Shown here: positions 2,121-49,280 of the stretch, piece after piece
Position numbering within the stretch: the first letter of the stretch is position 1
How the letters are laid out: the number at the start of each line of letters is the position of its first letter
Source: Escherichia phage vB-Eco-KMB25
Direction: 5' to 3' (one strand)
Sequence record: OR424386.1
Length of the DNA: 50,475 nucleotides
Made by a program: the position numbers and the translations under genes
The notes under the pieces: generated by a model
Seen by the model: the letters and a program-made list of their open reading frames with translations, nothing else
Database searches by the model: none
Told to the model about the DNA's origin: nothing

Positions 2121-2147
2121 AAGGCTGGAATATTCCGGCCTTTTTTA
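2121..2147 (+). terminator. hairpin plus T-run between terL and portal (attenuator-type terminator)
   Basis: GGCTGGA-ATAT-TCCGGCC followed by TTTTTT. Confidence 0.5.
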
Positions 2148-2161
2148 TTATGGGGGTATTT

Positions 2162-5296: not shown

Positions 5297-5308
5297 GGAG
5301 AAAATATT

Positions 5309-5788: not shown

Positions 5789-5792
5789 TAAT

Positions 5793-5817
5793 AAGGCCGG
5801 ATTATTCCGGCCTTTTA
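5793..5817 (+). terminator. hairpin plus T-run (near-copy of the 2121 element)
   Basis: GGCCGGA-TTAT-TCCGGCC followed by TTTT. Confidence 0.5.
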
Positions 5818-5831
5818 TATATGGTGGTTTT

Positions 5832-6272: not shown

Positions 6273-6361
6273 TGTGCTAACACAAAAAACACTTGAACGT
6301 TTAACAAAAAATGCTATATTAAAGCCGTTATTATGACGGCTTTTCTATGAGGGAAAATATT

Positions 6362-7336: not shown

Positions 7337-7352
7337 TAATTCAATTAATATA

Positions 7353-7381
7353 GGGAACCGTTAAAAGGTTCCCTTTTTTTA
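7353..7381 (+). terminator. rho-independent terminator after the capsid gene
   Basis: GGGAACC-GTTAAAA-GGTTCCC followed by TTTTTTT. Confidence 0.6.
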
Positions 7382-7398
7382 TATCTGGAGAAAAACAA

Positions 7399-7671
7399 AT
7401 GGCTAAAGAAAAAGAAATTACACTGGTTAACACTGGCGTTGCACTGATTATTATTGATCGCGTTGACGTTATGCCAGGTAAGGAAATTACCGTTGCGGAA
7501 AGCGTGTTAGAGCGGCAGGGTACAAAATCACTGGTTGCACAAGGCAAGCTAACCGTAAAAGATAACAGCGAGCTAAACGATAAGATCATTGAAGCGTTCA
7601 ACGAAAAACGCAAGCCAAACCCAACCGAAGGCAAAAGCAAAGCACAGCTTGAGGACGGCGGCGAGTATTAA
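7399..7671 (+). CDS. small structural protein (hypothetical)
   Basis: 90-aa ORF with GGAG RBS between terminator hairpins. Confidence 0.25.
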   Translation: MAKEKEITLVNTGVALIIIDRVDVMPGKEITVAESVLERQGTKSLVAQGKLTVKDNSELNDKIIEAFNEKRKPNPTEGKSKAQLEDGGEY

Positions 7672-7678
7672 TTAGAAA

Positions 7679-7703
7679 GGGCGCTCATATAGCGCCTTTT
7701 TTA
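7679..7703 (+). terminator. rho-independent terminator
   Basis: GGCGCT-CATATA-GCGCC followed by TTTTTT. Confidence 0.55.
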
Positions 7704-7717
7704 TTATGGGGGTTATT

Positions 7718-8137
7718 ATGGTTGATGAAATTTATGGCGATATTGAGATCCTAGAGCAAATTTATAAAATAGCGCCAGCATTCAAGAAAGTTGAACCTGA
7801 ATTGATTCAGGCATGGATTGAACTGGCTAAAGATTTCGTTTGCGAAAAGCATTTCAAAGACAAATATTTCCGCGCTGTTGCTCTTTACACTTTGCACCTG
7901 ATGACTCTTGACGGAGCTATGAAACAGGAAAGTGAGAGCGTAGAAAGCTACTCGCATCGTATAGCGTCATTTTCCCTGACTGGTGAGTTTTCTCAGACAT
8001 TCAGCAAAGTTAGTGACGACACAAGCGGTAACACGTTGCGCCAAACGCCGTGGGGTAAAATGTATGAAGTTCTTAACAAGAAAAAAGGCGGCGGATTTGG
8101 CCTTACAACTGCCTTTAATCGGAGGTGCTCACGATGA
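7718..8137 (+). CDS. head-tail connector / completion protein (putative)
   Basis: Synteny between capsid and tail genes; start region repeats the TTATTATGGGGGTTATTATG module seen at the portal start. Confidence 0.3.
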
Positions 8138-8505
8138 ATTATGAACAAATCAGATCTATGGCATCGGCTGGAATTAATTTTTTTAGCGATGGAACGGGTG
8201 AATTTGATTGCATTACTCAACCTGGAAGCGTTGAAATTGTTGGCGGTATTGAGGTTGAAAAACCTGAAATAAAGGTGAAGATTAAAGGTCTTGTGAGAGC
8301 ACCACGGACGCGAGAAGTTGACGGAGAGGTAATTAGAGTTACCGACAAGTTAGGCGTTTTTAATGCTGATGTAGAGCTTAAAAACGGATATCAGATTGAT
8401 ATAGACGGCGAGCGTTATGTTATGGTTGAAACAAGACCAATCAGACCAACAAGCATTACCGTTGCTTACCGTCCAATAATGCGGAGGGTTGCGGTTCATG
8501 GCTGA
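8134..8505 (+). CDS. head-tail joining protein (putative)
   Basis: Synteny; ATG 8134 behind GGAGG. Confidence 0.3.
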
Positions 8506-8938
8506 TTATTCGATCCGAGAATTTCATGGCAATGTTGACAAATGGATCGAGCAAGTAGAAAGCGGATTGAATGACGTGATTCAGATTTTTGGTGAAAAGG
8601 TTCACGGCGCATTAGTTGATATTGCGCCAGTGGACACAGGACGATTCAAAGCCAATATGCAGATCACAGCAAACAAACCGCCTCTTTACGCGCTCAATCA
8701 ATATGATCCTGATGGTGAGAAAACAAAGGCGGAAGGTCGCAGGACGCTTTATGCTTTATTGCATGGCGGCGGTGCTATCAAATCAATATACTTTTCCAAT
8801 ATGCTGATTTACGCTAATGCTCTTGAGTATGGTCATTCAAAGCAAGCGCCAGCGGGGGTATTTGGTATCGTTGCGATCCGGTTGCGCTCTTACATGGCGG
8901 AAGCGATAAGGGAGGCGAGAAAGAAAAATGCACTATGA
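8489..8938 (+). CDS. tail completion protein (putative)
   Basis: Synteny; overlapping start and stop with neighbours. Confidence 0.3.
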   Translation: MRFMADYSIREFHGNVDKWIEQVESGLNDVIQIFGEKVHGALVDIAPVDTGRFKANMQITANKPPLYALNQYDPDGEKTKAEGRRTLYALLHGGGAIKSIYFSNMLIYANALEYGHSKQAPAGVFGIVAIRLRSYMAEAIREARKKNAL

Positions 8939-9320
8939 ATTATCTGTTGCGGCAAGAATGGCGCTGGCTCAAGAATACGAAAGTGAATATATGATCGCTT
9001 ATGAAAACGTTGAATTTACGCCACCAGAAGGCGGCGGCATTTGGCTGAAATATGACTACAAAGAAGCAGATACAATAATTCACGATCTGAAAAGGAAATG
9101 CATTAGCTATATTGGAATGGTTCAGATCGGAATTGAATTCCCGCCAGGATCAGGAATTGATAAGGCTCGCAAGCTGGCAAAAAATATTGCTGATTTCTTT
9201 GAAGATGGTAAAATGCTTTCGAATGGCTATATTTCAGAAGGTGCAAAAGTGCATCAAGTTCAGAAATCAGAATCAGGATGGTTTTATCCAGTACGTTTTT
9301 ATGTTCGTTATGATGGTTAA
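8928..9320 (+). CDS. tail-associated protein (putative)
   Basis: Synteny only. Confidence 0.3.
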   Translation: MHYELSVAARMALAQEYESEYMIAYENVEFTPPEGGGIWLKYDYKEADTIIHDLKRKCISYIGMVQIGIEFPPGSGIDKARKLAKNIADFFEDGKMLSNGYISEGAKVHQVQKSESGWFYPVRFYVRYDG

Positions 9321-9334
9321 TAAAGGGGGCTATT

Positions 9335-9997
9335 ATGCACTTACCTAACGGATCACAGATTTTTATTGAAAACACGCGCGGCGTGGCAGTAAGCGCAACC
9401 AACGTAAGCAATGCAACAAAACCGGAATTTACGCTTGAAAGCGGCGGTGATGGATTCCAGAAAGGTGATTATATTATCGTTACCGCCTCAAGTTGGGGTA
9501 AGTTGCTTGATCGCGTTCTGCGTGTGACGGCGGCGGAAGCAACTAAGGTTACTGTTGAAGGTATCGACACAACCGATACTAATGTTTTTCCGTCTGGCGC
9601 TGTAACTGCGAGCTTTGCGAAAATCAACGGTTGGACAGAGATCCCATGCGTACAGGATTTGGGGCAGGACGGCGGCGAGCAGCAGTATTACAATTACCAG
9701 TGTTTGAGCGATGACCAGGAGCAGCAGTTACCAACCTATAAAAGCGCGGTATCACTGACTTACACATTTGCGCATGAATACGATAACCCGATTTATCCGC
9801 TCTTGCGTAAGGCTGACGAATCCGGCGACGTTAAAGCATTGCGCATGTATGTACCAAAAGCAAAAGAAATGCGCCTTTGGGCTGGTGTGCTTTCTTTCAA
9901 CGAGATCCCACAAACGTCGGTAAACGAAATGGAAACCGTTTCTTTGTCGGTATCCCTGAAAGGTCGCTTTACTTTCTTGCCGTCTACTCAGGCTTAA
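9335..9997 (+). CDS. major tail protein (putative)
   Basis: 220 aa directly upstream of the chaperone pair and tape measure; followed by a strong terminator hairpin. Confidence 0.5.
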   Translation: MHLPNGSQIFIENTRGVAVSATNVSNATKPEFTLESGGDGFQKGDYIIVTASSWGKLLDRVLRVTAAEATKVTVEGIDTTDTNVFPSGAVTASFAKINGWTEIPCVQDLGQDGGEQQYYNYQCLSDDQEQQLPTYKSAVSLTYTFAHEYDNPIYPLLRKADESGDVKALRMYVPKAKEMRLWAGVLSFNEIPQTSVNEMETVSLSVSLKGRFTFLPSTQA

Positions 9998-10003
9998 TTT
10001 AAA

Positions 10004-10027
10004 GGGGCGCATTGCGTCCCTTTTTTA
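10004..10027 (+). terminator. rho-independent terminator after the major tail gene
   Basis: GGGGCGC-ATT-GCGTCCC followed by TTTTTT. Confidence 0.6.
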
Positions 10028-10068
10028 TTTGATGTAATATCACCTCAATATTTAACAACTCAGGAGAA

Positions 10069-10389
10069 ATGACAATGGCTAAAATGAAATTGACTCTTGC
10101 CCCGCTTCCAGATTTCAAACTTCCAGTTAAATTTGTATTGCCGGATGGTAACGAGCAGAAAATTGTGTTTACAGTTAAGCATAAAAAGGCCAGCGAGATT
10201 CAAGAGCTTTACCAGAAAGAAGGTATTAAAGATCCTGAATTCATCATGAATGTTGCCGTTGGTTGGGATCTGGAAGAAGAATTCAACGAAGAAAACGCTC
10301 AACTGTTAGTTGATTATTATCCTGGCGCGGCGCTGGCTCTTATGGGATCTTATTTAAGTGCGCTGGCAGGGCAACGCGTAAAAAACTAA
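10069..10389 (+). CDS. tail assembly chaperone (G-like)
   Basis: 106 aa between major tail and tape measure genes; ends with slippery A AAA AAC before the stop. Confidence 0.55.
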   Translation: MTMAKMKLTLAPLPDFKLPVKFVLPDGNEQKIVFTVKHKKASEIQELYQKEGIKDPEFIMNVAVGWDLEEEFNEENAQLLVDYYPGAALALMGSYLSALAGQRVKN

Positions 10390-10706
10390 AACGGGCGGTT
10401 TATCTGTATTATCAGAAACCGCCGACAGATGCAGAATTGCAAGCCGTAGGATTAACACGCGCAGACTATGAAGGAGAAGATCCGCCAGAGGTCATATTTG
10501 ATGAAAGTATGATGCAATCATGGGATATATTTTGCGCGATGGGCACACAGTGGCGTAGTGCTGGCGCTGGTGCTTACGGTTTTGATTATAATGTTTTGCC
10601 TATGTTATTCAGAATCTATAAAATAGACGATGAAGAAATGGCCTTAAATGACTTGCGCATCATGGAACAAAAAGCACTGGAAATGATGCAAGCAAATAAC
10701 AAATAA
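10069..10706 (+). CDS. tail assembly chaperone G-T fusion via programmed -1 frameshift (putative)
   Basis: The -1 frame is open from 10314 to 10706 and overlaps the 3' end of the G-like gene; heptamer AAAAAAC at 10380-10386. Confidence 0.4.
10380..10386 (+). other. candidate -1 ribosomal slippery heptamer A AAA AAC
   Basis: X XXY YYZ pattern in the G-like frame, two codons before its stop, within the frame overlap. Confidence 0.4.
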
Positions 10707-10729
10707 AGCGCCTACGGGCGCTTTTTTTA
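10707..10729 (+). terminator. rho-independent terminator before the tape measure gene
   Basis: GCGCC-TACG-GGCGC followed by TTTTTTT. Confidence 0.55.
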
Positions 10730-10743
10730 TGAGGGTAAAATAT

Positions 10744-13656
10744 ATGGCTGAACAATTTGCAGGTTTAACACTTGGCGTTAACGTCGAGCAGTTAAACAGG
10801 GCTGTAAAGTCATTGCAGGACTTTAAAAAAGCAAACGACGAAGCAAAGAAAGGCGTTGAGAGCTTTGTTAATGAGGAAGAAATTGCAAAGCAAAGAGCAA
10901 AACAATTAGCTGATGAATTGGCGAAACAGAGCCGTGAATTTAAACGCATTCAGGACACTGTTGATCCGACGGCGGCTAAAATGCGCAAGCTATCTCAGGC
11001 CGCAAGTGATCTTGATAAGCTATGGCAAAAGGGCATTGTTCCCGATGAAACGTTTTTCCAGTTGGGGAGTATGCTGGAAACTCAGATCAGCAAGCTGGAG
11101 CGTAATAAAAAGGCGTTAACGGAAGAAGGCCGCGCAGCACTTGAGGAATCAAAAGCCAAAGAGAAAGCAGCGTTAGCAGGAAAAACTTTCCTTGCGGATC
11201 TGGAATCGCAAGCCGCCGCTCTTGGCAAAACAAAAGCCGAATTGCTTGAAATGAAAGCGGCACAACTTGGCGTAAGTGCTCAGGCCGCGCCATTTATTGC
11301 ACAGCTTAAAGCGCAAGAAAAACAGATGAAGTTAACCGGAATTAGCGCGGGGCAATATAACCAGGCCATGCGAATGCTTCCGGCTCAGATCACTGACGTT
11401 GTAACGTCGCTGGCTTCCGGTATGCCTGTTTGGTTGGTTGCAATCCAGCAGGGTGGACAGATTAAGGATTCTTTCGGCGGCGTTGGCAATACGTTTAAAG
11501 CGCTGTTGTCGTTTCTGAATCCGGTAAACGTTGGGCTTGCCGCCTTAGCCGTTTCAATTGGTGCTCTTGTTAAGGCTGGTTATGATGCGTATAAGTCGCA
11601 ACGTGACTTGCAAGAGGCGTTGGTGCTGACTGGTGGCTATGCTGGAACAAGCGGCGCACAGTTCGATAAGCTGGCGCAGGACATTAATAACAGCACTGAT
11701 GCGACGATAGGAAACATCCGATCCATCGCAACAGAGCTTGCAAAATCAGGCAAATTCACGATTGATCAGATTAAATCGATCACAAAGACTACCGCTCAGT
11801 GGTCAACGGTAACGGGTGAATCAAGCGACAAGATAACCGATTACTTTAATAAGATTGCTGGCGATCCGGTTAAAGGTCTTGCAGAGCTAAACGAGCAATT
11901 CAACTTTTTAAGCGAGGGGCAATTAACCTACATTGCAGACCTGGAGAAAACGAAAGGCAAAACGGAAGCAGTAACGGCGGCGACAAAATTATTTGCTGAT
12001 GTTATGGATCAGAGATTAGCTAAACTGGCAGACTCCGCAACGCCATTAGAAAAGATGTGGACGAACATTAAAAAATGGGCTTCAGATGCGTGGGGTTGGG
12101 TTGGGGATCACACGCTGGCGGCGCTTAACCTGATTATTGACGTTGTAGCCGGAACCGTTGAGCAAGTTCGTTATTTACTTAATCAGGGTGATATTCTCAT
12201 TGGTGAATTTATTGTGTCGGCAACAAAAGCGATGCAAAAAATACCAGGACTTGATAATGTTGGCGATTCTGTTATTTCGCAGCAGCAGAAGATTATCAAT
12301 AACGCTAAGGAGAACAACAAGGAGCTATTAAAATCAATTGCCGAACGTAACGAGCGAGTCAAAAAAGGCGAGCAGGGTTACATTGACATGATGAAAAATC
12401 GTGCGGCGGTTGAACAGCAATATGCGACAAAAACAAAAGAGAATATCAGGAAGGAAGCCGAGGAATTAGCCAAGCGCGATAAAAAGCAAAAGGCTGAAAA
12501 AGTTAAGGTATCGGCTGGCGATAAGCTGGAAGAACAATATCAGCGTGATATCCTGGCGTTAGAAACTCAATTAAGAGTTTTGAAAGGGCACAAGACGATC
12601 ACAGATACCATAAGCCAGCAACGTAAATCTTTATGGGCTGAACAAGCTAAAATTCAGATTTTGCAAGAAGCCTCAACAAAACGGCAACTTACTGATGAAG
12701 AAAAAAGCATTTTAGCCAACAAAGATAAGATCCTGGCGATGGCTGAACAAAAAGCTATTTTAGGCGATCAGATTGTTGCGCAAACGCGCCTTAATCAGTT
12801 GCAAGATAGCTCAATCAAGTTTATCCAGCAGCAGAAAGCAGCAACAGAAGCACTAGCAAAAACCAGAGGGTTAAGCGAGCGTGAAGCAGCAAGAGCGGCG
12901 GAACGTGCAAAGGTTGAATCTGATTATCTTGCTAAGGGAGGACAGAAAGAAGATCCGCAACTTAAAGCCATGATGGATTCATTAGACAACCGCTATAAAG
13001 AGGAAGATGCCAAACGTGCTGATTGGTTGGCTGGCGCTAAAAATGCCTTTGCTGAGTATGGCGAGGAAGCAATGAACATGTATGATAATATCGGCAACAT
13101 TGCGAGCCAGGCGCTAAACGGCCTATCGCAACAAATGGCTGATTTTTTAACTACTGGACAAGCAAACTTCAAAGACTTTGCAAAATCTATCATTAGCATG
13201 ATTGTTCAGATGATAACAAAGATGGCTCTTTTTAATGCCATATCAGGCATGTTTGGTTCATTTGGTTTTGGTGGAGCAACTGGAGGATTTCAGGGTGCTA
13301 GTTTTGCTGTTGGCGGTTATACTGGCGACGGTGGAAAATATGATCCGGCTGGCGTTGTTCATAAAGGTGAGTTTGTTTTCACCAAAGAGGCAACGCAAAG
13401 GATCGGAGCCAGAAACCTGTATCGCATGATGCGAGGTTATGCAAACGGAGGTCAAGTAGGAAGCGTGACAACTGGCGGCTCTGGAATCAATCGCGGTGCA
13501 TCGCAATTTGCATTTGGTGATATAAACGTTAACATTGACAACGGTCAAGATCCAAAAGGGATGGAAACTGGTATTAAGATGATTTTCACTGAAATGATTC
13601 AACGGTCATGCTCGCAAGGTGGCGAGGTTTATAATTTTGTTCATGGGAGGGCTTAA
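10744..13656 (+). CDS. tail tape measure protein
   Basis: 970 aa, the longest gene in the tail block; coiled-coil-rich centre and Gly-rich C-terminus; follows the chaperone pair. Confidence 0.85.
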   Translation: MAEQFAGLTLGVNVEQLNRAVKSLQDFKKANDEAKKGVESFVNEEEIAKQRAKQLADELAKQSREFKRIQDTVDPTAAKMRKLSQAASDLDKLWQKGIVPDETFFQLGSMLETQISKLERNKKALTEEGRAALEESKAKEKAALAGKTFLADLESQAAALGKTKAELLEMKAAQLGVSAQAAPFIAQLKAQEKQMKLTGISAGQYNQAMRMLPAQITDVVTSLASGMPVWLVAIQQGGQIKDSFGGVGNTFKALLSFLNPVNVGLAALAVSIGALVKAGYDAYKSQRDLQEALVLTGGYAGTSGAQFDKLAQDINNSTDATIGNIRSIATELAKSGKFTIDQIKSITKTTAQWSTVTGESSDKITDYFNKIAGDPVKGLAELNEQFNFLSEGQLTYIADLEKTKGKTEAVTAATKLFADVMDQRLAKLADSATPLEKMWTNIKKWASDAWGWVGDHTLAALNLIIDVVAGTVEQVRYLLNQGDILIGEFIVSATKAMQKIPGLDNVGDSVISQQQKIINNAKENNKELLKSIAERNERVKKGEQGYIDMMKNRAAVEQQYATKTKENIRKEAEELAKRDKKQKAEKVKVSAGDKLEEQYQRDILALETQLRVLKGHKTITDTISQQRKSLWAEQAKIQILQEASTKRQLTDEEKSILANKDKILAMAEQKAILGDQIVAQTRLNQLQDSSIKFIQQQKAATEALAKTRGLSEREAARAAERAKVESDYLAKGGQKEDPQLKAMMDSLDNRYKEEDAKRADWLAGAKNAFAEYGEEAMNMYDNIGNIASQALNGLSQQMADFLTTGQANFKDFAKSIISMIVQMITKMALFNAISGMFGSFGFGGATGGFQGASFAVGGYTGDGGKYDPAGVVHKGEFVFTKEATQRIGARNLYRMMRGYANGGQVGSVTTGGSGINRGASQFAFGDINVNIDNGQDPKGMETGIKMIFTEMIQRSCSQGGEVYNFVHGRA

Positions 13657-14003
13657 TGTTAGATGAATTTACCTGGTGTACGCAGATTCAGAGCGGCGGC
13701 GGTGTAATGACAACTACCAATAACGACAGGGAAGTTGTTTTTGGTAACGGTTATCGCCAAAAGGCATCTTCTGGATTTAACACGGAGCGTAGGGAGTTTT
13801 CTATTGTTTACGCTGGCGCTGATTATAAAAAAGTGAAAGCGTTCATGACGGATCACAGATTAAAGCCTTTCTTGTGGAGGATGCCGGATGGTGATTTAGG
13901 GTTGTTTACTGTTAAAGCCGGAACGGTAGGACTAACTCCAATAAGCCCAACCGCTCAGGAAGTCAAAGCAACTTTCACGGAAGAATTTACATCCATGCGA
14001 TAA
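13656..14003 (+). CDS. minor tail protein (lambda M-like)
   Basis: 115 aa directly after the tape measure gene; first of a lambda-like M-L-K-I-J order. Confidence 0.6.
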   Translation: MLDEFTWCTQIQSGGGVMTTTNNDREVVFGNGYRQKASSGFNTERREFSIVYAGADYKKVKAFMTDHRLKPFLWRMPDGDLGLFTVKAGTVGLTPISPTAQEVKATFTEEFTSMR

Positions 14004-14007
14004 ATCA

Positions 14008-14033
14008 AAGCCGCCATTGTGCGGCTTTTTTAT
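14008..14033 (+). terminator. rho-independent terminator
   Basis: AAGCCGC-CATTGT-GCGGCTT followed by TTTTT. Confidence 0.55.
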
Positions 14034-14070
14034 TGTGTCTATAATGGTGCTTTATTGGAGGGCATAGAAT

Positions 14071-14829
14071 ATGGCTGAAAAACAGATCAAAAAGACTTTT
14101 GAAAATTGTCTGCAATCGCTTTTCCCTGGTGAAATAATTACGCTTGTTGAGGTTGACGGCACAAAATTTGGTGCGCAGGTTTACCGCTTTCATGCTGAAA
14201 ATATCGCGTACACGCCAGAGGAATTAATGCAAGCGCGTGAAAATGGAATATTGCCGCCGAAAGATATTAAATTTCGTGGCGAGGTTTACGGGGCGCGGCC
14301 TTTTGGTATTACTGGCATCGGATTTACAAGTAACGGAAAGGCAGAGAAACCACAATTGGCGCTTTCAAATTTAGATAGCCGCGTATCTGCATTAATCAGA
14401 TCATATAATGGCATGATGCAAGCCAAAGTAACAATTTGGGTTACATCGGCTGATTTAATTGATGAAGAAGGAAACGTGGAGGACGGCGCATATAGAAAAT
14501 TGGTTTATTATATTGAGCGTCCGAATTTTGTTAATCAGACAGTTGCACGTTTTGAATTAACATCACCTTATGATATGGATGGAATTATGATCCCGCCACG
14601 ACTTACGCAAAGCGTTTGTTATTGGGCGCAAAGGGGATGGTATAGAAGCGGGAAAGGTTGCGGATATAACGGATCGGCAATGTTCGATAAAGACAATAAT
14701 CCGGTAACAGATCCGAGCAAGGATTATTGCGCCGGAACGGTTACAGCTTGCAAATTGCGCTTTGGCGCTCAAAATGAATTAGACTTTGGCGGTTGCGCGG
14801 TTGCATCACTATTGAGGAAAAACCAATGA
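14071..14829 (+). CDS. minor tail protein (lambda L-like)
   Basis: 252 aa with C-terminal cysteine cluster (CYWAQ..GKGCGY..DYCAGTVTAC), as in Fe-S-containing gpL. Confidence 0.65.
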   Translation: MAEKQIKKTFENCLQSLFPGEIITLVEVDGTKFGAQVYRFHAENIAYTPEELMQARENGILPPKDIKFRGEVYGARPFGITGIGFTSNGKAEKPQLALSNLDSRVSALIRSYNGMMQAKVTIWVTSADLIDEEGNVEDGAYRKLVYYIERPNFVNQTVARFELTSPYDMDGIMIPPRLTQSVCYWAQRGWYRSGKGCGYNGSAMFDKDNNPVTDPSKDYCAGTVTACKLRFGAQNELDFGGCAVASLLRKNQ

Positions 14830-15548
14830 TTAACGCAAAAATTAAACTTGAAATTATGCGCCATGCCAATGACGTTTATCCTAATGAATGTTGTGGCCTG
14901 GTAACTCAAAAATCACGCGTACAGAAGTATCACCGGATCGACAACGTAAGCAAGGATCCGGAAAAGCATTTTGAAATGGACGCTGAACAATATGCAGAAG
15001 TTGAGGACGGCGGCGCAGATATCATCGCGATAGTTCATAGCCATACAGGGGAGGGAGCAACCACAATCCCTAGCGCACACGATTTGTGCATGTGTGATGA
15101 AACTGGTGTTTCTTGGGTTATAGTTTCGATACCAGAAGGAGACATGAGAATCATAGAGCCACAATCACGGCCTTTGATTGGTCGCCCCTGGTCGCTTGGC
15201 GCTTATGATTGTTGGGGGCTTATTATGGCCTGGCATAAAGAGCAAGGCGTGATCCTGAATGATTTCCGCAAGCCGTATGAATGGTGGAAGCCGGAACATG
15301 GTGAAAACCTTTATCAAGATAATTACTTGAAAGAAGGTTTTATGGAAACAGGAGAGCCACCAAAGCCAGGTGATATGATCATAATGCAGTTGCAAGCGCC
15401 AGTATGGAACCACTCCGGAATTTATTTAGGCAACAATCAACTATTGCATCATGCATTCGGCAAGTTGTCGCGAGTTGATTTATATTCTGGATGGTATCAG
15501 GAACACACAACAATGATTTGCAGACATAAGGATCTGAAAAATGAATAA
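14826..15548 (+). CDS. tail tip protein (lambda K-like; MPN/JAB plus NlpC/P60-like)
   Basis: N-terminal JAMM-like motif HSHTGEGATTIPSAHD; C-terminal Cys/His papain-like region (YDCWG ... H); ATGA overlap with L-like gene. Confidence 0.7.
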   Translation: MINAKIKLEIMRHANDVYPNECCGLVTQKSRVQKYHRIDNVSKDPEKHFEMDAEQYAEVEDGGADIIAIVHSHTGEGATTIPSAHDLCMCDETGVSWVIVSIPEGDMRIIEPQSRPLIGRPWSLGAYDCWGLIMAWHKEQGVILNDFRKPYEWWKPEHGENLYQDNYLKEGFMETGEPPKPGDMIIMQLQAPVWNHSGIYLGNNQLLHHAFGKLSRVDLYSGWYQEHTTMICRHKDLKNE

Positions 15549-16140
15549 GGTTATCAACGTAAAATTATCAGGCTCATTAGGTCGCCGCTTTGGTGTTTTC
15601 CATAAATACGCCGTTGAGAGTTGGCCTGAATGCGTAAGGGCATTATCAAGCCAGGTTGAAGGATTCAAAGAATTTATGCAAAGTGAAATCGGATCAAAGA
15701 TGAAATTTGCAATTTTCGTTGATGGTAAAAATGTTGGCCTGAATAATGATAGCGCATGGCGTTGCGCTCGCGAGGTTAGAATTGTTCCCGTTCCAACCGG
15801 TTCAAAATCTGGAGGTTTATTTCAGGTTGTATTAGGCGCTGTAATTATGGTTGCTGCATTCTATACTGGCGGCGCTTCACTTGCTGCAATGGGGGCTTTT
15901 TCTTCATCGGCTTTTATGATGGGCGGTGCTATGGTTCTTGGCGGAGTAATGCAGATGATTAGCCCACAACAGGGAGGCATGAAAATGGAGAGTCAAAGCG
16001 CTGAAAATAAACCATCATATGCGTTTGGTGGTGCTGTTAATACTACGGCGGCAGGTTATCCGGTATGTTTGCCATATGGTTATAGAACGGTTGGTGGCGC
16101 TGTATTCAGTGCTGGCTCATACGCAGAAGATAAACTTTAA
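15541..16140 (+). CDS. tail assembly protein (lambda I-like)
   Basis: 199 aa with Gly/Ala-rich hydrophobic C-terminal half; position between K-like and J-like genes. Confidence 0.65.
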   Translation: MNKVINVKLSGSLGRRFGVFHKYAVESWPECVRALSSQVEGFKEFMQSEIGSKMKFAIFVDGKNVGLNNDSAWRCAREVRIVPVPTGSKSGGLFQVVLGAVIMVAAFYTGGASLAAMGAFSSSAFMMGGAMVLGGVMQMISPQQGGMKMESQSAENKPSYAFGGAVNTTAAGYPVCLPYGYRTVGGAVFSAGSYAEDKL

Positions 16141-16147
16141 TTATATA

Positions 16148-16173
16148 AACCCGCCGTTGCGCGGGTTTTTTGT
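16148..16173 (+). terminator. rho-independent terminator between I-like and J-like genes
   Basis: AACCCGC-CGTTG-CGCGGGTT followed by TTTTTG. Confidence 0.6.
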
Positions 16174-16221
16174 TACATGTACAATGGCAGCACGTTTAAA
16201 TAGCACAAAAGGTTAAAAGCT

Positions 16222-19200
16222 ATGATCAAAAATATGATAACTGGCAGTAAGGGCGGTTCTTCAAAGCCTCATACACCTGTTGAAATGGAAGATAACCTAA
16301 TTTCAATTAACAGGATCAGAATTCTTTTAGCCGTTTCTGATGGTGAAGTTGATCCAGACTTTTCATTGAAAGATTTATATTTTGATGACGTTCCGGTTAT
16401 GAATCAGGATGGTTCACTAAACTTTCAGAATGTTAAGGCAGAATTCAGACCAGGGACGCAAACGCAGGATTATATTCAGGGGTTTACTGATACAGCCAGC
16501 GAAATTACAGTTGCTCGCGATCTGACAGCCTCAACGCCTTATATTATTTCTGTTACCAATAAAAACCTTTCTGCGATCCGTATTAAAATTTTAATGCCTC
16601 GCGGGGTTACTCAGGAAGATAACGGAGATCTAACAGGTGTTCGCGTTGAATATGCTGTTGATATGGCTGTTGATGGTGCTGAATATAAAGAGGTTTTTTA
16701 TGATGTAATTGAAGGTAAAACAATGAGCGGTTACGACAGAAGCCGCCGAATTGATTTACCTGCTTTCAATGAGCGTGTTTTATTGCGCGTCCGCCGCCTG
16801 ACAGATAGCACGTCAGCAAGGGTAACGGATCTGATTAAAATGCAAAGCTATGCGGAAGTTGTAGACGCTAAATTTCGTTACCCCCTGACTGGTTTAGTAT
16901 ATGTTGAGTTTGACAGCGAATTATTCCCTAATGCGTTGCCGAATATCAGCATTAAGAAAAAATGGAAAATCATTAATGTTCCGTCAAATTATGATCCTAT
17001 TTCCCGCACTTACTCAGGGTCATGGGATGGAACCTGGAAAAAGGCATGGAGTAATAACCCTGCTTTTGTTCTGTATGATTTGATTACCAATCAGCGTTAC
17101 GGACTCGATCAAAGAGAATTAGGCATCGCGCTTGATAAATGGAGCATTTACGAATGTGCGCAGTATTGCGATCAGATGGTTCCAGACGGTAAAGGCGGAA
17201 CAGAGCCGCGCTATCTTTGCGACGTTGTGATCCAGAGCCAGGTAGAAGCGTATCAGCTTGTGCGTGATATTTGTTCAATCTTCCGTGGCATGAGCTTTTG
17301 GAATGGTGAGAGCCTTTCAATCGTGATCGATAAGCCTCGCGATGCGTCATACATCTTTACTAATGACAACGTGGTTAACGGTGAATTCACTTACACGTTT
17401 GCCAGCGAAAAAAGCATGTACACGCAATGCAACGTGACTTTCGACGATGAACAAAACATGTATCAACAGGATGTTGAGGGAGTTTTCGAAACGGAGGCGG
17501 CGTTACGCTTTGGCTATAACAGCACGTCAATTACTGCGATTGGATGCACACGACGCAGCGAAGCCAACCGCCGTGGACGCTGGATTTTAAAAACCAACGT
17601 CAAGAGCACAACGGTAAACTTTGCTACAGGTCTGGAAGGTATGATCCCAACCGTAGGCGATGTGATTGTTGTATCGGATAACTTTTGGTCAAGCGCTCTA
17701 ACGCTGAATCTATCAGGTCGCGTGATGGAGGTTAGCGGGTTGCAGGTGTTCACGCCGTTTAAGGTTGACGCAAGAGCAGGTGATCGCATTCTGGTAAATA
17801 AGCCGGATGGTAAACCAGTTGGTAGAACCATTGCTAGTGTGAGTGATGACGGTAAAACGCTAACGCTAAACACGACATTTGGTTTTGACGTTCATCCGGA
17901 TACCATTTTTGCAATTGAGCGAACCGATATTGCACAGCAACGATATATTGTAACTGGAATCACTAAGGGTGACGGTGATGAAGAATTTACCTACAACATA
18001 ACGGCTGTTGAATACGATCCGAACAAATACGATGAAATTGATTATGGCGTAAACATTGATGACCGTCCGACTTCAATCGTGCAGCCTGACATTTTGCCAG
18101 CACCGCAAAACGTCAAGATCGAATCTTATTCGCGAGTTATTCAGGGCGCGAGCGTGGAAACAATGCACGTTTCATGGGATAAAGTTGAATACGCAAGTCT
18201 GTATGAAATGCAGTGGCGAAAAGACAATGGCAACTGGAACAATACGCCGCGAACCGCGAACAAGGAAACGGAAGTTGAAGGTATTTATGCGGGTAACTAT
18301 CACGTAAGGGTTAGATCTGTTGCGGCTAATGGTTCAGCGTCTGGATGGTCTGCAATAGTAAGCGCAGGATTAACCGGAAAAGTGGGAGAGCCGGAAAAGC
18401 CAATTAACCTTACAGCGTCAGATAATGAGGTTTTCGGCATTCGCGTAAAATGGGGTATGCCGGAGGGAAGCGGAGACACGGCCTATATAGAGTTGCATCA
18501 AGCGCCAAACGGTGCTGATGGTCATCCTATCGTTGATGAAGCAACGCTCTTAACGCTGATACCGTTCCCGCAATATGAGTATTGGCATTCAATACTGCCA
18601 GCGGGTCATGTTGTCTGGTACAAGGCAAGAGCAGTTGACAAAATCGGTAACGTTTCTGATTGGACTGATTTTGTGCGCGGCATGGCTTCCGACGATACAA
18701 GCATTATCACGGATCATATTAAGGTCGATATTGAAAATTCTGATGGCTATAAGTGGTTGCAGGAAAACGCAATAAAGACCAATGATAAGATCCACAGCAC
18801 AGCGGAATCAGTGATTGAAAACGCATTAGCTAATGATAAAGATGTTCGACGTATGCGAGTTGAAAACGGAAAGCGTAAAGCGGAGTTCTTGCAATCGCTG
18901 AAACTCATTGCAGACGAAACAGAAGCTAGGGTAACACAGGTCACTCAAATGAGTGCGCAATTTGACGAGAAATTAACGGCTCAAAATAGCGAATTGAGAG
19001 AGGTAATTGCTAACAGCACTGAAACCATTAGCCAAAGGATTGATCAGCTTACAGCTACGTTTGATAGCGAAATTGATGGGGTTAAGCAGGATATCAAAGC
19101 GCAGATAACTGATGTTAACCAGGCAATCACCAATGAAGCGGAAGCGCGAGCGTCAGCAGATAGGGCGTTATCAACTCAAATTGGAGATACCCAATCAGCA

Positions 19201-19680
19201 GTGAATCAGAAACTTGATTCTTGGGTTAATGCCGATAGCGTTGGTGCGATGTACGGCGTTAAGTTGGGGATCAGGTATAACGGGCAGGAATATAGCGCGG
19301 GTATGGCTCTTTCCCTTGTTGGTGACGGATCAGGAGTTAAATCACAATTCCTGTTTGATGCTGGACGATTTGCGATCATAAACAACCAACAGAGCGGAAC
19401 GTTTTCTCTTCCTTTTGTTGTTGAAAATAATCAAGTATTCATGAATAGTGCGTTTATTAAAGATGGTACTATTACGAATGCAAAGATAGGGGGTTATATT
19501 TCATCAAATAACTATGTTTGGAATCAATCAGGATGGTATCTTGGCAAGGATGGACAGTTCTATAACTTTGGTTCTACTCCTGGCGAGGGTGCGATGAAAC
19601 AATCCAATGAAACAATCAGCGTAAGGGATCAGAATGGTGTTCTTCGCGTTCAAATAGGAAGAATAACCGGAGTGTTTTAA
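16222..19680 (+). CDS. central tail fibre / host specificity protein (lambda J-like)
   Basis: 1152 aa; N-terminal GSKGGSSKPHTP and central VPSNY..YSG.WDGT..NNPAF..QYCDQ.VPDG.GGTEPR blocks resemble lambda gpJ as recalled from memory. Confidence 0.85.
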   Translation: MIKNMITGSKGGSSKPHTPVEMEDNLISINRIRILLAVSDGEVDPDFSLKDLYFDDVPVMNQDGSLNFQNVKAEFRPGTQTQDYIQGFTDTASEITVARDLTASTPYIISVTNKNLSAIRIKILMPRGVTQEDNGDLTGVRVEYAVDMAVDGAEYKEVFYDVIEGKTMSGYDRSRRIDLPAFNERVLLRVRRLTDSTSARVTDLIKMQSYAEVVDAKFRYPLTGLVYVEFDSELFPNALPNISIKKKWKIINVPSNYDPISRTYSGSWDGTWKKAWSNNPAFVLYDLITNQRYGLDQRELGIALDKWSIYECAQYCDQMVPDGKGGTEPRYLCDVVIQSQVEAYQLVRDICSIFRGMSFWNGESLSIVIDKPRDASYIFTNDNVVNGEFTYTFASEKSMYTQCNVTFDDEQNMYQQDVEGVFETEAALRFGYNSTSITAIGCTRRSEANRRGRWILKTNVKSTTVNFATGLEGMIPTVGDVIVVSDNFWSSALTLNLSGRVMEVSGLQVFTPFKVDARAGDRILVNKPDGKPVGRTIASVSDDGKTLTLNTTFGFDVHPDTIFAIERTDIAQQRYIVTGITKGDGDEEFTYNITAVEYDPNKYDEIDYGVNIDDRPTSIVQPDILPAPQNVKIESYSRVIQGASVETMHVSWDKVEYASLYEMQWRKDNGNWNNTPRTANKETEVEGIYAGNYHVRVRSVAANGSASGWSAIVSAGLTGKVGEPEKPINLTASDNEVFGIRVKWGMPEGSGDTAYIELHQAPNGADGHPIVDEATLLTLIPFPQYEYWHSILPAGHVVWYKARAVDKIGNVSDWTDFVRGMASDDTSIITDHIKVDIENSDGYKWLQENAIKTNDKIHSTAESVIENALANDKDVRRMRVENGKRKAEFLQSLKLIADETEARVTQVTQMSAQFDEKLTAQNSELREVIANSTETISQRIDQLTATFDSEIDGVKQDIKAQITDVNQAITNEAEARASADRALSTQIGDTQSAVNQKLDSWVNADSVGAMYGVKLGIRYNGQEYSAGMALSLVGDGSGVKSQFLFDAGRFAIINNQQSGTFSLPFVVENNQVFMNSAFIKDGTITNAKIGGYISSNNYVWNQSGWYLGKDGQFYNFGSTPGEGAMKQSNETISVRDQNGVLRVQIGRITGVF

Positions 19681-19720
19681 AATGTGGGGCGCATGCCCCA
19701 CTAATTAAAGAGGTGATTTT

Positions 19721-20029
19721 ATGAGTTACGATATTGCAACATGGGACGCAAACGGCGTTTACAATAACTATGGAATTAAGCCAGTTTCAGTAATATCAAA
19801 TATACAACTTTCATCAGGTCAAACATCTGGGCAATGGTTTTTTAATGTTCCACAAGGTAAAAAATTAGGCTATGTTGTTGGTCTTGATATTGGAGGTACT
19901 CAGGTTGGAAGGAAGATTGAAGTTTCTGGAAATTCTATAATTGTTAGCGCAGCATTATCTGGAAACGTAGGTTATAATTATTACCCTGCATCGCAATGTG
20001 AAGTTATCGTGTATTTGGAGAATGCATAA
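19721..20029 (+). CDS. small tail-associated protein (hypothetical)
   Basis: 102 aa with strong RBS AAAGAGGTG; contains WDANG motif shared with the ORF at the window end. Confidence 0.3.
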   Translation: MSYDIATWDANGVYNNYGIKPVSVISNIQLSSGQTSGQWFFNVPQGKKLGYVVGLDIGGTQVGRKIEVSGNSIIVSAALSGNVGYNYYPASQCEVIVYLENA

Positions 20030-39564: not shown

Positions 39565-40340
39565 TTTAATTAAAATACGAATACCTTTTCGCACGCTTTC
39601 CGTCGCCTCCGTAATGGTCATTAGCAACAGCAAGAATCCAAGCGTTAGGAATAAAAAATAGCTTCATTAATCACTCTCCATGACAATTACAGGCTCCAGG
39701 CGCTCAAGCACCACTTTGAAATCGGAGTAAAAAGTAGGGCGACGTTTTGTTAATTCCTCATATGTATCAGTTGCCAGGCAAGCGCGATCACCTTCATAGC
39801 ACACAACTCGCTTACCATTGGCGCGGCTTATTGCAACGACGCGATAAGTATTATTGATCATTTCATCACCTCAATTGAATAAATACTTTCAACGCCTGGC
39901 GCGTATAACCGATCTCCATCTTCAGTTATGCAAAGACAAAGTGCAAGGCCGCGATTGTCTGAAATATGCAAGTCATTTTGTCTATCCATCAAAATTTCAT
40001 ATTCGCGATCTTCATCAAAGCGCCAAACGCTTAACATGCACTTTCCAGATGATTTAACTTTTACTTTCTTTCCGGCGAAATTTAAACGACTCATTGCGCC
40101 ACCTCCACAGTTTCAAATACGGTATTGAATGCCAGAAGTTTAAATTTCTTGCCAGGCTCAACAACCTGAATATTCCAGGTAATGCCGCCGTGATATGCAA
40201 CCATATCATCAATATCGACGGTGATTTGTGCGCCCTTCTTGAATAAACCTTTTTCATGGCTCGCATCGCGTACAGTAACCACAGTTTCGAATTGAGTTTG
40301 AATTTCCATCGTTAATCTCCTGATTGGTTTCGATGGGGTA

Positions 40341-42553: not shown

Positions 42554-43355
42554 TTGGCATAATTACCCCATCGAAACGAAACGAGGAAAACACAATGACT
42601 ACCTTAATCACCTGGGAACACGAAACAAGCCAGCCAGTAACCCGCGAGTTTGAAACTCTTAGCCAGGCTTATCTTTTGGCTGCTAACGGTGGTTATTACA
42701 AGGCTCAAGTTGTTGATGAAATGGGAGTGATCGTTTATGAATTCCATGCATAATTTCCGCAGCTACACGCAGGAAGTGGATTTTGAGGGGATCAAGTTAC
42801 CACTTCCTAACATATACCGCTATATCACTCGTGATGAATACGGATTTATAAACGCCTGGCGAGATAAGCCCAAAAAGGTTGGCAATGAATACGGCGACGG
42901 CTCAGAGATGCCGATCACGTTAGGTCATCAAACTGGCGAGAATGTAGCGGCTGTAATGCGCAAATATCGCCGCAGCCTCACAAACTCATTAATTTCTATC
43001 TTTGGCATACAGGAGTAATAAAAATGTTTGAACTGAAACGCGTAACTGTTGAGATCCTGAATGATGGCTCTTACGATGGAATGAAACACTTAACATTCCC
43101 GATCCGCATTGAGAATTGCATTGATTACGGTATTGAAGTTGGAATGGTTGACGTTCCGCTTGATGCCCTGGTAGCGGCTGGCTATGACAAAGAGAAAGGC
43201 CAATGCGCCGATATACCGGATAGCTATGAAAGCGACACACATTTCCCGTTCACCTATGGCGAATGCAGGATTGTTGATTGAGGTTATAAAGTGAGCAGTT
43301 GGCATAATGAACACGTAATGCAATTCTACCGCTACAGAATAAAGAAAATGCTAAA

Positions 43356-43398
43356 TAGCACGAATTGCTAAAACTAAATCAGGGGCATTTGTTATAGT
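43356..43398 (+). promoter_or_regulatory. dyad-box promoter (TAGCACGAATTGCTAAAAC, 18 bp, TGtTATAGT)
   Basis: Extended -10-like TGnTATAGT in the loop of hairpin AGGGGCA/TGCCCCT. Confidence 0.5.
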
Positions 43399-43432
43399 GC
43401 CCCTCGTTGAGTTAAGCAAAGGAGAATCAACA

Positions 43433-43987
43433 ATGTTAAGCATCGAAAAAATCAACTTCCCGATCACATTTAAAAATTGCGCTAACGGTAAAAATATTAC
43501 ATATCACAGTGAATACAGCAACGGCGTTTGGAGTAGCGGCGAGAAAAGCAGTCTTTCATTGCAATATTTCATTAAGCTGCATAATGAGCATAACCAAAGC
43601 AATAGTAATGTGTTGAGGTACTATTACGAAATGGCAGAAAAACGCGAGGATAACGATCTGTTATATGCGATGAAATATTTAAATATCAGGCCTGGCCATG
43701 TCAATTTAAACGGTGCTGTGTTTACTGAGTCAGTAGGTGCTAAAGATTACGATTACATTTGCAAGGTTGAAAATATGCCAGTTGGCGCAACGCTTTTAGG
43801 TGTTCAGCGTGAAAATGGCGAATGGGACGAGTTGAAATTTAAACCGCGCCGCATTGAAGTACATGACGATGTTATTTGCTTGCTTTCCGGTTATTCTGGT
43901 GGCTACAAGAGCGGCAATAATTACGGCGCTGAAATCAACATTAAGATCGGCACTAACGTAAAAATCAAAAACAGCACGAATTGCTAA
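43433..43987 (+). CDS. hypothetical early protein ending in NSTNC
   Basis: 184 aa from ATG 43433 behind AGGAG; last five codons are supplied by the next dyad box. Confidence 0.3.
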   Translation: MLSIEKINFPITFKNCANGKNITYHSEYSNGVWSSGEKSSLSLQYFIKLHNEHNQSNSNVLRYYYEMAEKREDNDLLYAMKYLNIRPGHVNLNGAVFTESVGAKDYDYICKVENMPVGATLLGVQRENGEWDELKFKPRRIEVHDDVICLLSGYSGGYKSGNNYGAEINIKIGTNVKIKNSTNC

Positions 43988-44547: not shown

Positions 44548-45111
44548 ATGTTTAAGATCGAATTGTGGGGGAAGGAATACGCTAATCACTACGTTGCAAC
44601 AAAACAGCGTTTCGTTATTTTTGACCTGGACGGCACGTTATCAAATGGGGCGCATCGCTTGCACCTGTTGCCAACTGTTGACTTGCATCTTACTGAAAGC
44701 TGGAGTGAGTTTAACCGCGCCTCAAAGGATGATTCACCGTTCAGCAATAACATTTCCGTGTGCAATGCTATGTTTGATGCCGGATACCTGGTTATCATCC
44801 TAACGGGTCGGAGTGATGAAGTTGAGGCAGAAACGCGAGCATGGTTAGCTGAAAACGGCGTTTCTTTCGATTGGCTGATTATGCGCCGAGCGGAGGACAA
44901 CCGGAAAGATACCGTGATCAAAGAGGAAGTTTTACGGACTATCGGGCTTGATCGCATTGTCGCATGTTGGGATGACTCGCCAAACGTTATTGCACACTTG
45001 CGCGGCCTGGGCTTGACGGTTTACCAGGTTATTGACTACGGAGACCAGTTGCACGATCACATAAAATCTCACGGCGTGGAGGAATTGAGCGATGACAGCA
45101 AAGCTAATTGA
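44548..45111 (+). CDS. HAD-superfamily phosphatase (polynucleotide 3'-phosphatase-like)
   Basis: Motif I FDLDGTL, later LTGRSD and WDDSP motifs typical of HAD phosphatases. Confidence 0.55.
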   Translation: MFKIELWGKEYANHYVATKQRFVIFDLDGTLSNGAHRLHLLPTVDLHLTESWSEFNRASKDDSPFSNNISVCNAMFDAGYLVIILTGRSDEVEAETRAWLAENGVSFDWLIMRRAEDNRKDTVIKEEVLRTIGLDRIVACWDDSPNVIAHLRGLGLTVYQVIDYGDQLHDHIKSHGVEELSDDSKAN

Positions 45112-47474: not shown

Positions 47475-47987
47475 ATGAAAGCTAAAAATGATTTTTATAA
47501 CTACCTGACAAAAGGCCGCGACTATACCGTTTTGAATAGCATAGATACTCTTTACCTGGTTGTTGCTGATAATGGCGTTAGAGTTTGGCTTGATAAAACT
47601 CTTTTCGAAAGCGAGCACCTAAGCAATGCAAAGCGGATCGCAGATGAAGCAAGTGCATTAGCAGAGCGTGAAAGAATTCGCGATATCGTTGCGGAGCAGG
47701 TGAGAAATTCATGTTCGCCTGGTGGCGATATCTTCAAATCAATGCGCGGTGAAATGACTGTTGGAATTCAAGATCGCGTAATTGCAAAATCAGTTGATTC
47801 TGTAATTGAGAATGCGAAATTCAATGCGTTGATTAACTCAGAGCCTAACGAATACGTCAAAGTGTTAGAGCAACTGCGTGAAGTGCTGAGAGTGCCGGAA
47901 GGTGAGAATATAGTGACTCATGCAAAGGTTGTAAGGACGTTGGCTGATGCTTTGCTTGACGTTTACCCAGGAATGAAGTGCAAATAG
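47475..47987 (+). CDS. hypothetical early protein
   Basis: 170-aa ORF whose TAG stop begins the next dyad box. Confidence 0.3.
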   Translation: MKAKNDFYNYLTKGRDYTVLNSIDTLYLVVADNGVRVWLDKTLFESEHLSNAKRIADEASALAERERIRDIVAEQVRNSCSPGGDIFKSMRGEMTVGIQDRVIAKSVDSVIENAKFNALINSEPNEYVKVLEQLREVLRVPEGENIVTHAKVVRTLADALLDVYPGMKCK

Positions 47988-48027
47988 CACTTTTTGTTAA
48001 AACTTCCGCGAGGGCATTTGTTAAAGT
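47985..48027 (+). promoter_or_regulatory. dyad-box promoter (TAGCACTTTTTGTTAAAAC, 18 bp, TGtTAAAGT)
   Basis: Same architecture; first gene downstream encodes the acidic 67-aa protein. Confidence 0.5.
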
Positions 48028-48061
48028 GTCCTCATTGAAGCGAAACACGGAGATTTAGAAA

Positions 48062-48265
48062 ATGGCTGTATACACTGGCAAGATGTTTGAAAGCGAAAAC
48101 CCGATTTACGGCGGCACTTATGAGCTAATCATTGATGAAGATCGCGTTATCCTGGCTGATGACGACAGCGAGGAATATTATGAAGTAGAGGCCGACAAAT
48201 GGGATAACGACGTTATGTTTCTTGTTGATAACAACCGCATCAAGTTTTACGCAGTGGAGGAATAA
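48062..48265 (+). CDS. highly acidic small protein (hypothetical)
   Basis: 67 aa with about 20 Asp/Glu and few basic residues (ADDDSEEYYEVEADKWDND). Confidence 0.3.
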   Translation: MAVYTGKMFESENPIYGGTYELIIDEDRVILADDDSEEYYEVEADKWDNDVMFLVDNNRIKFYAVEE

Positions 48266-49280
48266 CAGATGATCGCAATCAACCTATCAGAAGAACAAGC
48301 GAAATCGTTGCTAAATAGCTTGGGATGGCGTTATGGCTCTGGTGAATATGAGCGATTGGATGTTAAAAGCGATGTTGCAAAAGAGGTTTTCATCCAGCTT
48401 GAGCAGCAATTAATGCCACGCTCAACAAGTGCGGCAGAGTTAGCAGTGTGGCGGCACGAAAACGGATTGAACGAAATGGATGTTGAAAAGTGGAAGCGTA
48501 AAAACGAGGTGTTAGCATGATTTACATTCACTCTTACGGAGTTGGCAAGTTTGGCAGCAAGCAGATCAGAAACATTCACGACACGTTAGAAGAAGCGCAA
48601 GCACAGCAACGCGTTTTAGGTGGAGTTGTTCAGGCTTTTGAATCGGTTGAGAATTTAGGCATTAACGAGCAGATAAAGGAAATCGTTGTTGATGAAGTAG
48701 CATGTATCATTGACGATTTCAGCACGAAAGCGCCAGGTTCGGCGCGTGAGCTTGAGCCAGGTTCTATCGAGTGGGATTTATACAAGGTTGGAGTGCTAAA
48801 CCGCCTCCGCGAGCTACTCGCAGAAATTTAACGAATTTGCATCGATTTTAATCGCCTCCAGACGCATTCTAAGAGGCGAATTTTTTAGGAAGGTGATTCT
48901 ATGCCTGAATACATAAAACCGTCGCAGTGGTGCGCACATAAGCAAGAAGAAGCATTAGAGCGCGGCGACACTGACACAGCATTGCACTACTTTGAAATGT
49001 TTCAACTTTGGAAATCAAGAGGACTTTAAAATGTTTGGACTTAATGAGGCTGAATACAACATTGTTAAACGCGCTGCAAAAGAGTGCATGAAGGATCTGA
49101 AAGTTGAAGTTACGAGCGGCAACAAATACGATCATATTGCGGCTGGCATTATCACCAAACATCACACGCCAATTTCTACCTTAATCACTCGCACAAAGTT
49201 TGTATGGCTTGCTGGTTATATAGCTGGTCGATGGGGTAAGCCTGGCGAGTATGAATAATAAGCACTTGAATCAATGAAGG

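Follow-up and report, generated by a model that had tools for sequence, protein, structure and literature searches.

What does a very acidic protein of 67 residues do as the first product of a phage transcription unit? The locus that raises this question lies in Escherichia phage vB-Eco-KMB25 (sequence record OR424386.1), and a preliminary description of it, made from the letters alone, proposed a candidate DNA mimic or anti-restriction factor. The stretch of DNA that was analyzed, referred to as the window, comprises 50,475 nucleotides. It belongs to a Tlsvirus (Drexlerviridae, T1-like siphovirus), and across the region of the gene it is 99.9% identical to Escherichia phage U136B.

Identity of the Gene and Its Product

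Translation of the open reading frame yields exactly the 67 residues reported initially, and the original estimate of roughly 30 percent Asp/Glu with few basic residues was a fair one. The protein contains 9 Asp and 10 Glu (28.4%) besides 3 Lys and 2 Arg, with a net charge of −14 and a pI of 4.05. Among the ~84 non-overlapping open reading frames of the window, it ranks first in acidic fraction, in lowest pI, and in negative charge per residue. It corresponds to U136B_023, which is annotated as a hypothetical protein, to gp20 of phage Tls, and to PHROG 6031 (E 9e-33 against phrog_6031), a family already catalogued under the entry "unknown function."

Pfam and NCBIfam scans of the protein revealed no family above noise and no enzymatic or other domain. 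When the Pfam scan was extended to E ≤ 1, the sole match was a sub-threshold YjcQ, and a search of the PDB sequences with the family profile returned no match for the protein. The reading frame is nevertheless a genuine gene rather than a chance occurrence, because it has a Shine-Dalgarno sequence, a homologue annotated as a coding sequence in U136B and Stevie, intact homologues in other phages, a low dN/dS, and conserved acidity.

Organization of the Transcription Unit

The gene is the first of three closely spaced genes on the plus strand, and the unit is closed by a terminator-like hairpin (Table 1). Phage Stevie carries an annotated terminator at the equivalent place, and a simple terminator scan of the window missed the hairpin because of its long loop. 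The upstream gene encodes a protein of 170 residues that is labeled "putative GntR-family transcriptional regulator" in U136B. Pfam gave no support for the GntR label, the only match of the product being a DUF at E 0.17.

Table 1. Positions of the features discussed. Numbers refer to the window unless a locus or residues are named.
Feature	Position	Strand	Remarks
Promoter box ATAGCACTTTTTGTTAAAAC	47984–48003	+	One of the window's 21 copies
Dyad GAGGGCA / TGTCCTC (one G-T wobble) around TGTTAAAGT	48010–48033	+	From the sequence
Extended −10-like element inside the dyad	TG 48019–20, TAAAGT 48022–27	+	From the sequence
Shine-Dalgarno GGAG	48049–48052	+	9 nt before ATG; annotated RBS of U136B maps to the identical position
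First gene, 67 aa (U136B_023, Tls gp20, PHROG 6031)	48062–48265	+	
GGAGGA within the last codons of the first gene (GTG GAG GAA TAA, V-E-E-stop)	48257–48262	+	Shine-Dalgarno of the next gene
Second gene, 83 aa, DUF7180 (PF23805, E 1.4e-30)	48269–48520	+	3-nt gap after the first gene
Third gene, 104 aa, phrog_11192	48517–48831	+	Start overlaps preceding stop (ATGA); 398 phage records
Terminator-like hairpin TCGCCTC-N14-GAGGCGA, then T6 run	48852–48886	+	Closes the three-gene unit
Upstream gene, 170 aa	47475–47987	+	
Box sites (examples)	22121, 27597, 30055, 31379, 42522, 43357, 43973, 45479, 46599, 47986	+	
Box sites (examples)	40892, 40382, 39563, 38825, 37412, 36732, 34568, 26990, 20638	−	
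Gp54-Bas11 homologue, phrog_7421	40091–40309	−	
Methyltransferase-like ORF, 249 aa	37411–38160	−	
Stp-like peptide, 26 aa, VSSWHNEHVMQFYRYRIKKMLNSTNC	~43291–43371	+	
ORF of 184 aa	43433–43987		
Extra cassette and 184-aa gene	43375–43959		
Polynucleotide kinase/phosphatase gene	44548–45111		
phrog_5684 slot occupant, locus L007	2032–2244		
phrog_5684 slot occupant, locus L008	47726–47938		
phrog_5684 slot occupant, locus L030	2017–2274		
Predicted β-strands of the 67-aa protein	Residues 3–11, 19–24, 29–33, 38–44, 51–54, 61–65		AlphaFold2 model

The end of the first gene also serves the start of the second. A C-terminal -VEE is common to unrelated small ORFs, partly because it carries the Shine-Dalgarno sequence of the next gene. 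This overlap means that two of the 19 acidic residues of the protein are partly imposed by translational coupling. The stretch GTGGAGGAAT is common to the ends of three genes (repeat family D5), and the 3′ end of the first gene recurs on other small genes.

Promoter Box

The gene had been described as the first behind a dyad-box promoter, and this was borne out: both the box and the dyad precede it. Copies of the box are present on both strands of the window, where they head all non-structural units, including those for replication, methylase, and small genes, and the structural module (positions 1–20,000) contains none. The genome of phage T1 carries at least 12 copies. The box, AGCAC-N-TTG(C/T)TAAAA, precedes a −10-like hexamer by a fixed distance of 22 nt. 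A simple σ70 scan misses the promoter of the gene because TTGTTA is 22 nt from the −10 element, too far for a canonical −35 element.

Among the paralogous and orthologous copies of the dyad, the arm sequences differ but complementarity is kept, which looks like covariation of the hairpin arms. In most copies inspected by eye, a GC-rich hairpin flanks the −10 element or sits just upstream of it, and some box copies, at 31379 (plus strand) and 26990 (minus strand), resemble a promoter overlapped by a terminator. Read in frame, the box encodes ...NSTNC-stop (43345–43371 and 43961–43987). The Stp-like peptide and the 184-residue ORF share a C-terminal tail because both run into the box.

The box class also precedes gene 54 of phage Bas11. 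Mutations directly upstream of that gene let the phage escape and lower its expression, and Gp54 was expressed from its native promoter region on pBR322 in uninfected E. coli (Zhang et al., PMC11578894). Expression in uninfected cells implies that host RNA polymerase alone suffices for the box class, which by analogy would fit expression of the three-gene unit in the early or middle phase. Of the proposed early host-takeover region, then, the part that stands is that the box heads non-structural units and belongs to a class active without infection; early timing itself we infer from this. A literature search for transcriptome or timing data on T1-like phages found none, and the one candidate paper concerned a T5-like phage.

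Conservation and Relationship to T1 ST61

Intact homologues of the protein were found with tblastn in 56 phage records, all of them Drexlerviridae-like, and the diverged, syntenic copies in W011D, P-K7R, Henu7, and N5822 are 39–47% identical to it. A profile search of a collection of 5.8 billion proteins identified 48 family members, many on phage-sized contigs of ~50 kb. The family is narrow, because HMMER, run exhaustively against 1.84 billion representatives, gave only three true clusters in addition to one spurious repeat protein of 654 residues. This metagenomic protein (P0050), the only non-family match of the exhaustive search, is built of units of ~47 residues (...RLLIADxxGDELYEIDPDxAD...) that resemble residues 20–50 of the 67-aa protein. 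The likeness probably reflects convergence on a β-hairpin motif with an acidic turn instead of homology.

Acidity is kept across the 46 aligned family members, with net charges of −7 to −16 and pI values of 4.05–4.57. Eight columns of this alignment are at least 90% acidic, at positions Glu-10, Glu-21, Glu-26, Asp-27, Glu-41, Asp-45, Asp-48, and Asp-50. The pairwise dN/dS has a median of 0.083 and a maximum of 0.35 (37 pairs), and the gene is under strong purifying selection. These values bear on the idea that the ORF is a leader without function at the protein level, whose translation merely couples or regulates the downstream genes. The ribosome-binding site of the second gene within its last codons would suit such a role. 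Against it stand the low dN/dS, the retention of fold-forming residues and acidic columns down to 26–40% identity, and the confident structure prediction described below, and we regard a mere leader as extremely improbable.

The family extends to phage T1. The T1 protein ST61 (YP_003884, phrog_10456) is a hypothetical protein of 69 residues with a net charge of −14 and a pI of 4.05, and its gene occupies the same slot behind the identical box class, ~1.8 kb upstream of the small terminase. Alignment of ST61 with the family of the 67-aa protein by hhalign gave a probability of 89.5% (E 2e-6, 61 columns). HMMER assigned ST61 to phrog_10456, with a secondary match to phrog_6031 at E 1.4e-4. The two proteins differ in that their identity is only ~26% and the C-terminal third aligns poorly. 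With homology, slot, and box all shared, profile comparison identifies the 67-aa protein as a remote homologue of T1 ST61 and a member of a superfamily that comprises PHROG 6031 and PHROG 10456. The ST61 branch counts 69 records, among them those of ISF001 and IME-JL8.

Occupants of the Slot in Drexlerviridae

The conserved gene for the 104-aa protein was used as an anchor to survey the slot at 41 loci, composed of 33 IMG/VR loci, other fetched phage loci, and the window. The box and the first ORF could be called at 39 of the 41. At all 39, the first ORF behind the box encodes a protein of 67–85 residues with a pI of 4.05–4.67 and a net charge of −7 to −15. The slot is near-universal in Drexlerviridae, and the common denominators of its occupants are small size and acidity.

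The occupants belong to two superfamilies, one consisting of phrog_6031 and phrog_10456 (56 and 69 records) and the other of phrog_5684 (413 records). No link between the family of the 67-aa protein and phrog_5684 was detected by hhalign, and a profile-profile comparison with the first gene of the neighboring cassette likewise gave no link. Proteins of phrog_5684 (bas04_0084, bas11_0080; MKI[KR]IT...DECEVVEE) share the slot and the box with the 67-aa protein and are similarly small and acidic (70–85 residues, pI 4.2–4.7), but they are less acidic, have conserved Cys residues, and show no detectable homology to it. A weak FeoA/SH3-like Pfam signal suggests that phrog_5684 may be another small β-barrel. 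A third slot family was considered and rejected, since PHROG assignment places the 85-residue apparent singleton in phrog_5684. The phrog_5684 records derive for the most part from Klebsiella phages (269 of 413). Bas04 and Bas05, the two BASEL Drexlerviridae that are described as highly resistant to restriction, share an identical phrog_5684 allele.

The constancy of the neighborhood raises the possibility that the protein serves the phage itself, as a CarS-like antirepressor, as a chaperone on a phage DNA-binding protein, or as a subunit together with the DUF7180 and 104-aa proteins. Fixed operon partners with overlapping or tightly spaced starts would fit such a role, a near-universal slot would fit a core regulatory step, and CarS provides the precedent of an acidic SH3-like antirepressor (PMC2926617). 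However, two unrelated superfamilies alternate ahead of these conserved partners, even within one genus, where Henu7 has the family of the 67-aa protein and Bas11 has phrog_5684; this is hard to reconcile with a co-evolved complex. In P-K7R, moreover, the DUF7180 gene is absent from the locus, with a gap of 44 nt between the homologue and the anchor gene, and the regulator label of the upstream gene lacks Pfam support. On this evidence, a phage-internal partner or regulator appears unlikely.

Predicted Structure and Comparison with Gp54

The structure of the protein was predicted with AlphaFold2 from the alignment of 46 sequences, with a pLDDT of 88.9 and a pTM of 0.74. The model consists of six β-strands and contains no helix, and the longest loop connects β1 and β2. 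It superposes on the BFVD model of the W011D homologue, which is 45% identical in sequence, with a TM score of 0.93. The BFVD models of the ST61-family proteins of ISF001 and IME-JL8 are neighbors 2 and 4 of the model, with TM scores of 0.84 and 0.77. The protein is predicted to be a tiny β-barrel of six strands.

A Foldseek search of the PDB with this model gave no significant match. Gp54 of Bas11 (9AXB_B) appears at rank 8 with a TM score of 0.51 and an E value of 0.32, and it is the only PDB match with a TM score of at least 0.5 under both normalizations. Like the structure in 9AXB, the model shows a small six-stranded β-barrel with a long β1-β2 loop, and we describe the predicted fold as Gp54-like with moderate confidence. 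The resemblance does not extend to the sequence. The protein has no Pfam match to PF25180 ("Phage antiviral trigger protein Gp54") at E ≤ 1, and hhalign of the two families gave a probability of 0.6%. As a positive control, the product of a minus-strand gene of the window matches PF25180 at E 1.3e-31. This true homologue of Gp54-Bas11 is likewise the first gene behind a box, here in reversed orientation, and its family is present in 213 phage records. The slot occupant of Bas04, bas04_0084, was also considered as a Gp54 homologue and rejected; Gp54 sits in the leftward cluster.

A functional sibling of Gp54 would be non-essential and would bind a host immunity protein through a hydrophobic barrel core or by β-sheet augmentation and not by charge; it might inhibit one defense and be sensed by another. 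Besides the structural match, each of the two genes is the first behind its box. Gp54 binds CapRel directly once its barrel opens, and the authors suggest that it may inhibit another defense; triggering of CapRel-SJ46 is allele-specific within the Gp54 family, and close homologues often fail to trigger (PMC11578894). The lack of any profile link argues against this reading, and the presence of a true Gp54 homologue in the same window indicates that the two proteins are not interchangeable. In contrast to the 67-aa protein, Gp54-Bas11 is mildly acidic and is encoded in the leftward cluster. By residue count it has 11 Asp/Glu and 7 Lys/Arg, a net charge of about −4, whereas the family of the 67-aa protein is marked by conserved strong acidity. 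A near-universally filled slot also speaks against a niche role in anti-defense. We therefore consider a Gp54-like function rather unlikely.

DNA Mimicry and Restriction

Ocr and ArdA, both very acidic, are the first proteins produced once the DNA has entered. The former is an all-helical dimer and the latter a ~166-aa α/β dimer. The 67-aa protein resembles T7 Ocr (gp0.3) and ArdA in its strong acidity and in its charge density, at about −0.21 per residue within the range of known mimics. It is small, and its pI falls inside the interval of 3.8–5.5 covered by known DNA mimics (PMC2926617). To this extent the description behind the original proposal of a DNA-mimic or anti-restriction candidate stands, as does the first position behind a host-type promoter; the functional inference itself found no support in the comparisons proposed for it.

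The proposed comparison with the Ocr and ArdA folds had a negative outcome. The model is all-β and helix-free, unlike the all-α-helical elongated dimer fold of Ocr, and it comprises one small domain where ArdA has three α/β domains, so that as predicted it is unrelated to either fold as generally known. In the Pfam and NCBIfam scans, the protein gave no match to the family models of Ocr or ArdA. A monomer of 67 residues could also span no more than the equivalent of a few base pairs.

The plating behavior of related phages provides further evidence. Drexlerviridae with slot proteins are largely restriction-sensitive. The family of the 67-aa protein itself is found by tblastn in no BASEL phage, but Bas13 encodes a protein 95.7% identical to T1 ST61. 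Bas13 forms no plaques on EcoRV and plates with reduced efficiency on EcoRI and EcoCFT_II. The ST61-type protein thus leaves the phage unprotected from these systems, and general protection against systems of types II and III is excluded for the ST61 branch. Since Bas13 has no EcoKI sites, no EcoCFT_I sites, and hence no type I sites, its plating does not bear on type I systems.

An Ocr- or ArdA-like protein would imitate B-DNA and block type I restriction-modification or BREX early in infection. The window contains one EcoKI site where ~4.6 are expected, whereas EcoBI sites are not depleted (12 versus ~6.5 expected), and an active countermeasure would be useful against the latter. On the other side, the phage already possesses an Stp-like peptide and methyltransferase genes. 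With the fold and the plating data both against it, an Ocr/ArdA-type role is decidedly unlikely.

Several other features of the window touch on restriction. EcoP1I sites (AGACC) are halved, to 37 where ~78 are expected, and T1 is similar in this respect (43); EcoKI and EcoBI sites are both absent from T1. These counts suggest passive evasion of restriction through site depletion. GATC is over-represented in the window (284 versus ~181 expected), as is CCWGG (115 versus ~57), and the minus strand carries a methyltransferase-like ORF. T4 Stp is an inhibitor of EcoprrI restriction and an activator of the PrrC anticodon nuclease. The 26-residue peptide of the window, whose U136B copy is annotated "putative Stp," resembles it. 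Close to this peptide is a polynucleotide kinase/phosphatase gene with a PDB match to Pnkp1 (E 1.6e-6), which was the only match when the concatenated plus-strand accessory ORFs were compared with the PDB sequences. The Stp-like peptide is a more direct candidate for anti-restriction than the 67-aa protein. An extra cassette and a 184-aa gene are absent from U136B, as a gap in the BLAST alignment shows; here is one instance, within the accessory region, of genes being gained or lost as cassettes.

DNA mimicry in a wider sense is a possible mechanism by analogy with CarS. CarS1 from Myxococcus xanthus is a proven DNA mimic of 86 residues with a pI of 4.1, an all-β SH3-like protein with acidic residues around a pocket, which sequesters a DNA-recognition helix (PMC2926617). 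It offers a mechanistic model for mimicry by an acidic β-barrel.

Discussion

The explanation that we tentatively favor, while rating its chances somewhat below even, is that the 67-aa protein binds, early and stoichiometrically, to a basic surface on a host protein. Its gene would be read first in the three-gene non-structural unit, from a promoter used by host RNA polymerase, and the product would be a soluble, non-enzymatic, acidic mini β-barrel. The conserved carboxylates (Glu-10, Glu-21, Glu-26, Asp-27, Glu-41, and the invariant loop D45-x-x-D48-x-D50) would dock on this surface, which would probably be one that binds nucleic acid, and docking would block it. Such charge mimicry on an SH3-like scaffold would follow the example of CarS. 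Candidate targets are RecBCD-type nucleases, nucleoid proteins, and RNA polymerase. The near-universal filling of the slot makes a common host factor a more likely binding target than a sporadic restriction system.

Two considerations weigh against this binder model or limit it. The gene is conserved within lineages and is not diversifying, unlike many arms-race effectors. The acidity common to the slot occupants could also reflect something besides a common target, such as the Glu-Glu imposed by the ribosome-binding site.

A bolder form of the binder model can be put forward, which we judge unlikely as it stands. The Drexlerviridae, including T1, may reserve the first position of an early operon for a small acidic β-barrel, drawn from two unrelated superfamilies, that would serve as an all-β nucleic-acid mimic and neutralize a universal nucleic-acid-binding hub of the host such as RecBCD or a nucleoid protein. 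The slot protein would then be the T1-family counterpart of λ Gam or T7 gp5.9, on a scaffold undescribed for phage DNA mimics.

Beyond the known PHROG entry, the analysis adds the link to T1 ST61, a Gp54-like predicted fold without sequence similarity, and the rule of an acidic slot across the family; also new is that neither the fold nor the phenotypes back the Ocr/ArdA-type reading. Phages of the T1 type are common; besides being notorious contaminants of laboratories, they serve in therapy-related work (U136B targets TolC), and roughly half of their small genes lack a known function. One of these genes is now placed in a family that reaches T1 ST61, and its product is predicted to be a mini-barrel resembling Gp54, the only solved small accessory protein of Drexlerviridae. 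Should the slot proteins share a host target, its identification would uncover an early step general to T1-family infection, and perhaps nucleic-acid mimics of a new structural class. Should their targets differ, the slot would be a compact model of how non-homologous proteins replace analogous effectors.
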